Of a stretch of 64,000 nucleotides of DNA, positions 14,740 to 26,514 are shown in pieces. Under the pieces are notes generated by a model that saw only the letters and a list, made by a program, of their open reading frames with translations, did no database searches and was not told the DNA's origin. How positions within the stretch are numbered: position 1 is the stretch's first letter; each line of letters opens with the position of its first letter. Origin of the DNA: Escherichia coli (lineage in GTDB: Bacteria > Pseudomonadota > Gammaproteobacteria > Enterobacterales > Enterobacteriaceae); assembly GCF_013315695.1 (NCBI RefSeq), contig NZ_CP054353.1, one strand, 5' to 3'. A program made the translations under genes and the position numbers.

Positions 14740-14826
14740 TGGTGCGAGGGGGGGGACTTGAACCCCCACGTCCGTAAGGACACTAACACCTGAAGCTAGC
14801 GCGTCTACCAATTCCGCCACCTTCGC
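14740..14826 (-). tRNA. leuV: tRNA-Leu (CAG), tandem copy 1
   Basis: Reverse complement reads GCGAAGGTGGCGGAATTGGTAGACGCGCTAGCTTCAGGTGTTAGTGTCCTTACGGACGTGGGGGTTCAAGTCCCCCCCCTCGCACCA, 87 nt; gene-name assignment among the copies is arbitrary. Confidence 0.95.
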
Positions 14827-14860
14827 ACAGTCATCTTACTTTTTTTGATATCGCCTCGTT

Positions 14861-14947
14861 TGGTGCGAGGGGGGGGACTTGAACCCCCACGTCCGTAAGG
14901 ACACTAACACCTGAAGCTAGCGCGTCTACCAATTCCGCCACCTTCGC
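14861..14947 (-). tRNA. leuP: tRNA-Leu (CAG), tandem copy 2
   Basis: Identical 87-nt sequence and identical 34-bp spacer to copy 1. Confidence 0.95.
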
Positions 14948-14981
14948 ACAGTCATCTTACTTTTTTTGATATCGCCTCGTT

Positions 14982-15069
14982 TGGTGCGAGGGGGGGGGAC
15001 TTGAACCCCCACGTCCGTAAGGACACTAACACCTGAAGCTAGCGCCTCTACCAATTCCGCCACCTTCGC
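14982..15069 (-). tRNA. tRNA-Leu (CAG)-like, divergent tandem copy 3 (88 nt)
   Basis: Same unit but with a 9-C run instead of 8 in the T-stem/acceptor region and one D-arm substitution (GGTAGAGGCGC versus GGTAGACGCGC). Confidence 0.75.
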
Positions 15070-15097
15070 CCAGTGCGAGCAATATCAACGTGGTTTT

Positions 15098-15184
15098 TGG
15101 TGCGAGGGGGGGGACTTGAACCCCCACGTCCGTAAGGACACTAACACCTGAAGCTAGCGCGTCTACCAATTCCGCCACCTTCGC
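15098..15184 (-). tRNA. leuQ: tRNA-Leu (CAG), promoter-proximal copy 4
   Basis: Identical 87-nt tRNA-Leu sequence; 28-bp spacer to copy 3. Confidence 0.95.
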
Positions 15185-23091: not shown

Positions 23092-23955
23092 TCACAAATA
23101 TAGCGCCGGAAATATTAACCGGCTCACCCCGCGCTCCCGTAACGCATCAGCCAGTTGTTCCACATCCTCCGGCGTGGCGCTCGGCCAGCTTTGCGCCTCG
23201 CCATACACGCCGTGGGCATGAAACGCGTTCAGGCGTACCGGAACATCGCCAAGTCCCTTGATTAACGCCGCCAGTTCTTCGATATGTTGCAAATAATCCA
23301 CCTGGCCAGGGATTACCAGCAAACGCAGTTCCGCCAGCTTACCGCGCTCTGCCAGCAAACAGATGCTGCGCTTGATCTGCTGATTATCGCGTCCGGTTAA
23401 TTGCTGATGACATTCGCTCCCCCACGCTTTGAGATCGAGCATTGCGCCGTCACACACCGGGAGCAATTTTTCCCAGCCGGTTTCGCTCAACATGCCGTTA
23501 CTGTCCACGAGGCAGGTGAGATGGCACAGTTGCGGATCGTTTTTGATGGCAGTAAACAGCGCCACCACAAACGGCAACTGGGTCGTGGCTTCGCCGCCGC
23601 TTACCGTTATCCCTTCAATAAACAGAACCGCTTTGCGGACATGGTTAAGCACCTCGTCCACGCTCATGGATTGCGCCATTGGCGTAGCATGTTGCGGACA
23701 CATCTTCAGGCAGGTATCACATTGCTCGCAGGCAGCCGCGCTCCACGCCACTTTGCCGTCGACAATCTGCAACGCCTGATGCGGACACTGCGGCACGCAC
23801 TCTCCGCAATCATTACAGCGCCCCATCGTCCACGGATTGTGACAGTTTTTGCAGCGCAGATTGCAGCCCTGCAAAAACAGAGCCAGACGACTGCCTGGCC
23901 CGTCAACGCAGGAGAAGGGGATAATCTTACTGACTAAAGCGCATCTGCTGTTCAT
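23092..23955 (-). CDS. yjjW: Glycyl-radical enzyme activating protein (radical SAM, PflA family)
   Basis: 287-aa ORF with CxxxCxxC ([12 protein letters not shown]) and extra Cys-rich ferredoxin-like clusters. Confidence 0.85.
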
Positions 23956-25477
23956 GGCTTATCACGCGCGGCTGGCGTTCCAGAATACGAGTGTTGCGTG
24001 CGGCTTCTTCTCCCAGCCAGGTAGTGTTGGTGCGTGAACCTTCGGCGCGATATTTTTCTAAATCCGACAAACGCACCATATAACCGGTAACGCGAACCAG
24101 ATCGTTACCGCTGACATTGGCGGTAAATTCACGCATTCCGGCTTTAAAGGCACCGAGGCAAAGCTGTACCAGCGCCTGCGGATTACGTTTGATGGTTTCG
24201 TCGAGCGTCAGAATGTCGCTGATGCCGGAATAATAATAAGCATGATGCGGGGCGACAGTTTGCAGATGGGTAATCGGATCTGGCTCATCGCCATATGGTA
24301 AACGCGCGCCCGGCGTGGTGCCGATATCGGAACTTATCCCCGACTGTGCGTGTAACATGGCGCGTTTTTGCCAGCCATATTTCACGGGGGTATTGGCGAC
24401 AAACTCCGCCAGTTGCGCGCTAATGCGATAACCCACTTCATTTGCGGCGGCCTCTTTACCGTAGCGTGCGGCAATCCCTTCTTTTTCACACAGCAAGTTA
24501 ACCGCTTCCGCCAGCCCATACATGCCAAACATCGGCACAAAACGTTCAGGGTTAATCAGCCCTTCTTTCACCAGGAAGCTATTCTCAAAGAAGTGTGATT
24601 GTTGATAGAGGAATTCACACCGCGCATCGATGATGGCGATCTGCTGTTGGCAGTAGTGCGGTAGAGTGCGCGTAAAGAAGTCCTCCAGCGATTCACTGCG
24701 CTCGGCAATGGCTTTCAGGTTTAGGCGTACCAGCGTGCTGCCACCACCCGCCAGCGGCAGTGAGTTGTAACAGCTCACAATCCCGTAGCCCCCTTTTGTG
24801 AAAATTTTATCATGCACCGGACCGTTGGCGATGTGCGGTTTGCTACATTCACAGATGTTTTTCGCCACTTCCAGCAGCAGGTCATCAGGGGTGATATCAG
24901 GATCGTAGATAAAGGTCAGGTTCGGTGAAACCTGCTTCAGCTCTGCGTCTGCACGTAATATCGCACGGGTAATGGGCGAATCAGACGGGCCGATATTGGC
25001 ATGCATAAAGGCGTCTGGCAGGGTTCTGTCGAGGTAACGCCAGAAACGTTTTATTCGAATATCGATCTCGTCTTGTGTTAGAATTCTAACATACGGTTGC
25101 AACAACGCATCCAGTTGCCCCAGGTAGACCGGCATCGATGTGACCGAAGGAACGTGGTGGTAAAGAATGGTCAGCAGAGAGAGTGCGTCATCAAGATCTT
25201 TTGCGCCTTCCAGCTCCAGCCATTCGGAACCGTTGGCCAAAAAACGGGCGTAATCGGGTAAGACATAGCGCGGTTTGTACGGCGCATGACCTTCAAACAT
25301 ATCGCAGATTACCCCCTCATCCAGCGCGCGGCGGGCTTCGGCAGGCAGCTGTGGGTAAGGCAGATTATTTTCTGCTTCCAGTGCCAGAAAATGGCGCTTC
25401 TGCTCCGGGCTAAGTACCGGGCTGGTGACAATTTGCTGGCAACGTTGTTGCAGTGCATTTTCATGAGAAGTGGGCAT
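23927..25477 (-). CDS. yjjI: Uncharacterised glycine-radical-like protein (DUF3029)
   Basis: 516-aa ORF overlapping the yjjW start; co-oriented with its predicted activase. Confidence 0.8.
24797..24812. promoter_or_regulatory. Candidate distal DeoR operator (OE-like)
   Basis: tgtgaaaattttatca, 12/16 identical to the O1 palindrome; 279 bp upstream of O1, inside yjjI coding sequence. Confidence 0.45.
25076..25091. promoter_or_regulatory. DeoR operator O1 (deoP1 region)
   Basis: Perfect 16-bp palindrome tgttagaattctaaca, exactly 599 bp upstream of the second palindrome. Confidence 0.8.
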
Positions 25478-25674
25478 CTTCTTTTCCTTTTATGCCGAAG
25501 GTGATGCGCCATTGTAAGAAGTTTCGTGATGTTCACTTTGATCCTGATACGTTTGCCACCACTGACGCATTCATTTGAAAGTGAATTATTTGAACCAGAT
25601 CGCATTACAGTGATGCAAACTTGTAAGTAGATTTCCTTAATTGTGATGTACATCGAAGTGTGTTGCGGAGTAGA

Positions 25675-25690
25675 TGTTAGAATACTAACA
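25675..25690. promoter_or_regulatory. DeoR operator O2 (deoP2 region)
   Basis: 16-bp palindrome tgttagaatactaaca about 45 bp upstream of deoC; CRP/CytR-like tgtga motif nearby at about 25642. Confidence 0.8.
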
Positions 25691-25734
25691 AACTCGCAAG
25701 GTGAATTTTATTGGCGACAAGCCAGGAGAATGAA

Positions 25735-26514
25735 ATGACTGATCTGAAAGCAAGCAGCCTGCGTGCACTGAAATTGATGGACCTGACCACCCTGAATGAC
25801 GACGACACCGACGAGAAAGTGATCGCCCTGTGTCATCAGGCCAAAACTCCGGTCGGCAATACCGCCGCTATCTGTATCTATCCTCGCTTTATCCCAATTG
25901 CTCGCAAAACGCTGAAAGAGCAGGGCACCCCGGAAATCCGTATCGCTACGGTAACTAACTTCCCACACGGTAACGATGACATCGAAATCGCGCTGGCAGA
26001 AACCCGTGCGGCAATCGCCTACGGTGCCGATGAAGTTGACGTAGTGTTCCCGTACCGTGCGCTGATGGCAGGTAACGAGCAGGTTGGTTTTGACCTGGTG
26101 AAAGCCTGTAAAGAGGCTTGCGATGCGGCGAACGTACTGCTGAAAGTGATTATTGAAACCGGCGAACTGAAAGACGAAGCGCTGATCCGTAAAGCGTCTG
26201 AAATCTCCATCAAAGCGGGTGCTGACTTCATCAAAACCTCTACCGGTAAAGTGGCTGTGAATGCGACGCCGGAAAGCGCGCGCATCATGATGGAAGTGAT
26301 CCGCGATATGGGCGTAGAAAAAACCGTTGGTTTCAAACCGGCGGGCGGCGTGCGTACTGCGGAAGATGCGCAGAAATATCTCGCCATTGCAGATGAACTG
26401 TTCGGTGCTGACTGGGCTGATGTGCGTCACTACCGCTTTGGTGCTTCCAGCTTGCTGGCAAGCCTGCTGAAAGCTCTGGGCCACGGCGACGGTAAGAGCG
26501 CCAGCAGCTACTAA
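25735..26514 (+). CDS. deoC: Deoxyribose-phosphate aldolase
   Basis: 259-aa from ATG 25735 after aggag ([26 protein letters not shown]). Confidence 0.95.

Follow-up and report, generated by a model that had tools for sequence, protein, structure and literature searches.

Probable DeoR operators of the Escherichia coli deoCABD operon lie within conserved codons of the divergent gene yjjI

Three 16-bp sites upstream of deoC are, with a probability of roughly 0.96, the DeoR operators OE, O1 and O2 of the E. coli deoCABD operon, and codons of the divergently transcribed gene yjjI appear to have been frozen by those that lie inside it. The sites were examined in a 64-kb window, which is the whole stretch of E. 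coli DNA that was analysed. The operators themselves are already known, and their rediscovery adds nothing. What is added here is a quantitative measure of codon-level constraint in yjjI, together with a testable hypothesis of cross-regulation. A literature search found no discussion either of the embedding of the operators in yjjI or of constraint at the level of its codons.

Identity and spacing of the operator sites

In the window, yjjW and yjjI are carried on the minus strand, and deoC, deoA, deoB and deoD follow in that order on the plus strand from position 25735. The candidate operators and the two genes that flank the intergenic region are as follows.

24797-24812, no strand: OE, candidate distal DeoR operator, tgtgaaaattttatca (also given as TGTGAAAATTTTATCA), inside yjjI codons 222-227
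25076-25091, no strand: O1, candidate DeoR operator at deoP1, tgttagaattctaaca (palindrome TGTTAGAATTCTAACA), inside yjjI codons 129-134
25675-25690, no strand: O2, candidate DeoR operator at deoP2, tgttagaatactaaca (also given as TGTTAGAATACTAACA), intergenic
23927-25477, minus strand: yjjI, encoding a YjjI-family glycine radical enzyme of 516 aa (open reading frame and PGAP annotation; K-12 b4380), host of O1 and OE
25735-26514, plus strand: deoC, first gene of deoCABD (annotation)

When the window sequence was indexed by script, all three 16-mers were found where the preliminary description had placed them, with start-to-start distances of exactly 279 bp between OE and O1 and exactly 599 bp between O1 and O2, and with an OE-O2 span of 878 bp. 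Two of the sites had been described as 16-bp palindromes; this holds in full for O1, which is a perfect palindrome, whereas O2 is palindromic apart from its central TA. The O1 site corresponds to nucleotides 387-402 of the yjjI coding sequence and takes in codons 130-134 together with the third base of codon 129, so that codons 129-134 read Y-V-R-I-L-T and codons 130-134 are GTT AGA ATT CTA ACA (V-R-I-L-T). The OE site corresponds to coding nucleotides 666-681 (codons 222-227, H-D-K-I-F-T), and O2 lies upstream of both genes, 198-213 bp from the ATG of yjjI and 45 bp from that of deoC (25735). Both internal sites are therefore inside yjjI, as had been proposed, but the assignment to its 5′ coding region was loose, as they lie at 25% (O1) and 43% (OE) of the gene.

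A scan of the 64-kb window with the consensus TGTTAGAAWWCTAACA recovers only O1 and O2 at one mismatch or fewer. The next best match has three mismatches, 1.1 sites with three or fewer mismatches are expected from shuffles, and simple arithmetic predicts a perfect match about 1e-4 times per 64 kb. As sequence matches, O1 and O2 exceed chance by a wide margin. Of the 16 consensus positions, OE matches 12; with its four mismatches it is not recovered by the scan of the window at three mismatches or fewer. The window holds nine sites with four mismatches, OE among them, where about 5.5 are expected from shuffles. Judged by its letters alone, OE is indistinguishable from chance, and the case for it thus rests on its position and its conservation.

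A separate feature of the window is an array of four tandem tRNA-Leu(CAG) genes (14740-15184, minus strand, period of about 121 bp), which appears in the scan as repeated four-mismatch matches to the DeoR consensus (CGTAAGGACACTAACA). K-12 has three such genes (leuQPV), so an additional copy may be present in this strain.

Comparison with published operators supports the assignment. Both O1 and O2 follow the 16-bp pattern TGTTAGAA-(TT/TA)-CTAACA, and their sequences coincide exactly with the published DeoR palindromes TGTTAGAA-TTCTAACA and TGTTAGAA-TACTAACA, respectively (PMC5326754). Their 599-bp spacing, which the preliminary description had taken as the known O1-O2 distance, matches that reported between deoP1 and deoP2, two DeoR-repressed promoters that are locked by one loop (PMC3334521). 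DeoR binds O1 and O2, roughly 600 bp apart at tandem promoters, a third operator, OE, lies around 300 bp further upstream of O1, and electron microscopy has revealed loops between all the sites (PMC8053113). The third related site that had been pointed out, which has four consensus mismatches, lies 279 bp upstream of O1, a distance that fits the published position of OE (PMC8053113), and the 878 bp from OE to O2 fits the limit of about 900 bp for natural looping (PMC4217526). A full-text literature search for the three 16-mers found none of them printed contiguously.

The deo operon is a classic DNA-looping system of 1985-89 and a founding example of long-range repression by looping. Its operators were reportedly characterized by Dandanell & Hammer (1985), Valentin-Hansen et al. 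(1986), Dandanell et al. (1987) and Amouyal et al. (1989), and the OE-O1 distance of 279 bp agrees with the figure that we take the primary deo operator papers to give. Auxiliary operators in coding sequence are also found in the lac system, where O2 lies inside lacZ, and in the gal system, where OI lies inside galE; as in deo, these cooperate with a promoter-proximal operator by looping. However, the lac and gal operators reside inside a gene of the very operon that they regulate, on the same transcript, whereas in deo O1, the whole deoP1 promoter and OE would be carried inside a neighbouring, functionally unrelated gene on the opposite strand. The deo loops are also longer (279-878 bp), and the DeoR oligomer is larger (PMC4217526).

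The three 16-mers are found unchanged in K-12 strain MG1655, at 4616385, 4616664 and 4617263, with the same spacing. Indeed, the operator sequences, the 599-bp spacing, a third site some 300 bp upstream and the downstream genes are all shared with the K-12 deoCABD region, and the element itself shows no difference; the window simply derives from another E. coli strain. Positions 24600-26100 of the window are 100% identical to E. coli strain N17, and the region was found in 5423 of 5426 complete genomes. The DeoR operators of nupG and tsx, at other loci, share the repressor and the kind of palindrome (PMC5326754).

Promoters and binding sites around deoC and yjjI

Several further elements can be placed on either side of O1 and O2.

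25076-25084, plus strand: predicted extended -10 of deoP1, TGTTAGAAT, left half of O1 (from sequence; hexamer and start predicted)
25675-25683, plus strand: predicted extended -10 of deoP2, TGTTAGAAT, within O2 (from sequence)
25036-25058, plus strand: block with conserved synonymous sites, positions -55 to -33 relative to the predicted deoP1 start (yjjI coding nucleotides 420-442, codons 141-147)
25642-25657, no strand: CRP-1 site of deoP2, TGTGATGTACATCGAA (CRP ChIP-seq motif; conserved in the intergenic alignment)
25589-25604, no strand: CRP-2 site of deoP2, TTTGAACCAGATCGCA (about -93.5 from the predicted deoP2 start; conserved blocks)
25511-25551, minus strand: putative yjjI promoter, FNR-like TTGATCCTGATACG (25538-25551) and -10 TACAAT (reverse complement of 25511-25516)

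If this arrangement is read according to the established deo model, O1 and O2 would overlap the -10 regions of the tandem promoters deoP1 and deoP2, respectively, and DeoR bound at either site would occlude the promoter. Multimeric DeoR would additionally bridge two or three operators, looping out segments of 279, 599 or 878 bp, and this bridging by an oligomer would make repression cooperative and hold both promoters closed. Deoxyribose-5-phosphate would release DeoR, as has been reported for its operators (PMC5326754). A deoP1 transcript would start near 25091, lie antisense to yjjI over the first ~386 nt of that gene, cross the yjjI promoter and continue through deoP2 into deoC. The deoP2 promoter is also subject to extra control by CRP and CytR. 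Because deoP1 and OE lie inside the divergent yjjI gene, the same bases would serve as both operators and codons.

A simple sigma-70 scan called neither deoP1 nor deoP2, probably because both are without a good -35 hexamer. The conserved block at 25036-25058 is probably the -35/UP region of deoP1, written into yjjI codons; the 16-mer at yjjI coding nucleotides 425-440, with an entropy of 0.054, ranks second in conservation among the non-overlapping 16-nt blocks of yjjI.

The centre of CRP-1 is located about 40.5 bp upstream of the predicted deoP2 start, as expected for deoP2, and CRP ChIP-seq in ETEC assigned the motif TGTGATGTATATCGAA to yjjI/deoC (PMC4287617). The same study observed a second peak inside yjjI, roughly 544 bp from the intergenic peak, with the motif CGTACCGTCGGTCACA (PMC4287617). 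The corresponding region of the window (25139-25154), about 50 bp downstream of O1, has the sequence TGTGACCGAAGGAACG. This internal peak could represent a weak CRP site, or it could reflect deoP1 cross-linked to CRP-bound deoP2 via the DeoR loop. The assignment of CRP-2 to 25589-25604 follows established knowledge of deoP2, and the CytR target of deoP2 lies between CRP-2 and CRP-1. We know of no looping by CytR, and the suggestion in the preliminary description that loops might be formed by DeoR or CytR overreached as regards the latter. At deoP2, CytR acts locally with CRP (PMC3454398).

On the yjjI-proximal half of the intergenic region, the best-conserved blocks are TTTGATCC (25537-25544) and ATTGTA (25511-25516). 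The FNR-like site and the -10 TACAAT are 21 nt apart, a spacing that looks like that of a class II FNR promoter, with a yjjI start near 25504. The yjjI gene has been reported as directly activated by FNR, with a ChIP peak at 4,615,181 in U00096.2, which maps to approximately position 25572 of the window, about 25 bp from the putative promoter. The assignment to FNR is ambiguous, since the CRP-2 site (25589-25604) is also FNR-like. The mapping from U00096.2 to the window was checked with the sigma-54 motif CTGGCTCTGTTTTTGCA, reported for a strong sigma-54 binding site within the yjjW gene (PMC4591121). This motif has an exact match in the window at 23870-23886, on the minus strand inside yjjW.

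Codon-level constraint in yjjI

We compared 80 yjjI orthologue loci, one genome per species, of which 76 are non-Proteus loci from more than 20 genera and four are from Proteus. Third-position entropy was derived from a codon alignment in windows of six codons (511 windows). The O1 window has an entropy of 0.046 (rank 1 of 511) and the OE window an entropy of 0.11 (rank 2 of 511), compared with a gene median of 1.19. When the set was thinned to 61 sequences with less than 93% mutual identity, O1 retained rank 1 and OE took rank 3, with rank 2 occupied by the O1 window shifted by one codon. Third positions in the 12 operator codons are 98.5% identical to those of E. coli, versus 54% gene-wide.

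In all 76 non-Proteus loci, O1 is present at the same position of the coding sequence (nucleotide 387), where it has 0-2 mismatches, and the OE site shows 0-2 base differences from its E. coli counterpart. In every Enterobacteriaceae, Hafnia and Edwardsiella locus that reaches far enough, deoC is divergently adjacent to yjjI. By comparison, deoC is adjacent in none of the four Proteus loci, which represent a single lineage; there, the O1 codons (for example, GTG GGT GAG CTC ACC, with amino acids that also differ) depart from E. coli at 6-8 of 16 bases and the OE codons at 9-10 of 16. Together, these comparisons bear out the dual constraint on yjjI codons that the preliminary description had proposed, and it is well supported that the operator sites are selected as DNA and that this selection tracks deoC adjacency.

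The codons used within O1 are also consistent with selection on the DNA. The 33 arginine codons include just two AGA, one of them at codon 131, and the 56 leucine codons include three CTA, one of them at codon 133. Furthermore, codon 131 specifies glycine (GGN) in Hafnia and Edwardsiella (six loci) and in Proteus (four loci), and is AGA (Arg) or AAA (Lys) in Enterobacteriaceae. This distribution suggests that a GGA-to-AGA change at codon 131 completed the O1 palindrome at an amino-acid cost, the direction of the change being given by parsimony only. In this reading, the synonymous positions at deoP1 and OE have been frozen by selection for promoter function and DeoR binding, and probably some amino acids too. 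Elsewhere in the gene, coding nucleotides 1526-1541, in the 29-nt overlap of the yjjW start with the yjjI end (23927-23955), are also among the most conserved nucleotide blocks of yjjI.

O2-like sites, with 0-4 mismatches, are present in all scanned loci where deoC is adjacent, and the intergenic O2 is less conserved than O1 inside the gene. The OE-O1 distance is constant at 279 bp because it spans 93 codons of a gene free of indels. The O1-O2 distance varies across genera between 567 and 675 bp (mode 601 bp), and 599 bp is specific to Escherichia and Salmonella; this range rules out a conserved 599-bp spacing. At 10.5 bp per turn, the helical phase between O1 and O2 clusters from about 0.95 to 0.43 turns, in sequences that are phylogenetically non-independent.

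It might be argued that the sites inside yjjI are conserved mainly for the regulation of yjjI-yjjW, with deo regulation as a secondary role, for which an elongation roadblock, an internal promoter or bidirectional -10 elements are possible routes. Indeed, extended -10-like elements are present on the minus strand, in the sense of yjjI, at OE (TGATAAAAT), O1 (TGTTAGAAT) and O2 (TGTTAGTAT). Such elements occur on both strands because the operators are palindromic, and the palindromes may act as bidirectional -10 elements. The sigma-70 scan also yielded one promoter-like site on the minus strand (24831-24804), which ends inside OE, and the putative yjjI promoter falls between O1 and O2. However, a single promoter-like match equals the chance expectation (1.2), and the experimental literature assigns the operators to deo repression (PMC3334521, PMC5326754, PMC8053113). 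Likewise, yjjI is reported as FNR-activated with DeoR left unmentioned, and our literature search found no co-mention of DeoR and yjjI. We therefore consider a primary role in yjjI-yjjW regulation very unlikely.

Fainter still is the prospect that only O1 and O2 are real and that OE is a chance resemblance, in keeping with its mismatch count, that has been preserved by constraint on the YjjI protein or the yjjI mRNA: the third positions of OE (GAT, ATT, TTC, ACA) are essentially invariant in more than 20 genera, whereas the residues encoded by codons 222 (H/N) and 224 (K/N/R/S) vary, its conservation is second only to that of O1 among the 511 windows and drops steeply just outside the 16-mer, the Proteus loci, which do not have deoC next to yjjI, lack the site, and an operator about 300 bp upstream of O1 is documented (PMC8053113).

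Possible coupling of yjjI-yjjW to deo regulation

With the three sites taken as DeoR operators of deoCABD, the putative yjjI promoter (~25504-25551) would be enclosed by the 599-bp O1-O2 loop and would face deoP1 head-on across about 410 bp. An influence of DeoR on yjjI-yjjW is plausible from this geometry, but the literature search turned up no evidence of one. In the DeoR-bound state, looping, or roadblocks at O1 and OE, could alter how strongly yjjI-yjjW is expressed. In the DeoR-free state, the same genes could be modulated by antisense transcription from deoP1 that passes through the 5′ end of yjjI and its promoter. That the embedding of deoP1, O1 and OE in yjjI actually couples these two otherwise unrelated systems is a tentative proposal, which we hold to be doubtful on present evidence.

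The geometry provides a testable hypothesis, namely that the orphan glycyl-radical genes yjjI-yjjW are cross-regulated by DeoR or by antisense transcription from deoP1. If this hypothesis is true, a glycyl-radical enzyme would respond to the availability of deoxynucleosides.

The deo-yjjI region is a natural example, and an unusually clear one, of regulatory DNA embedded in the codons of a neighbouring gene. A whole promoter and two operators would give yjjI its strongest synonymous constraint across more than 20 genera, with rare codons kept in place. There is also a practical warning in this arrangement, as recoding or deletion of yjjI will perturb deo regulation.
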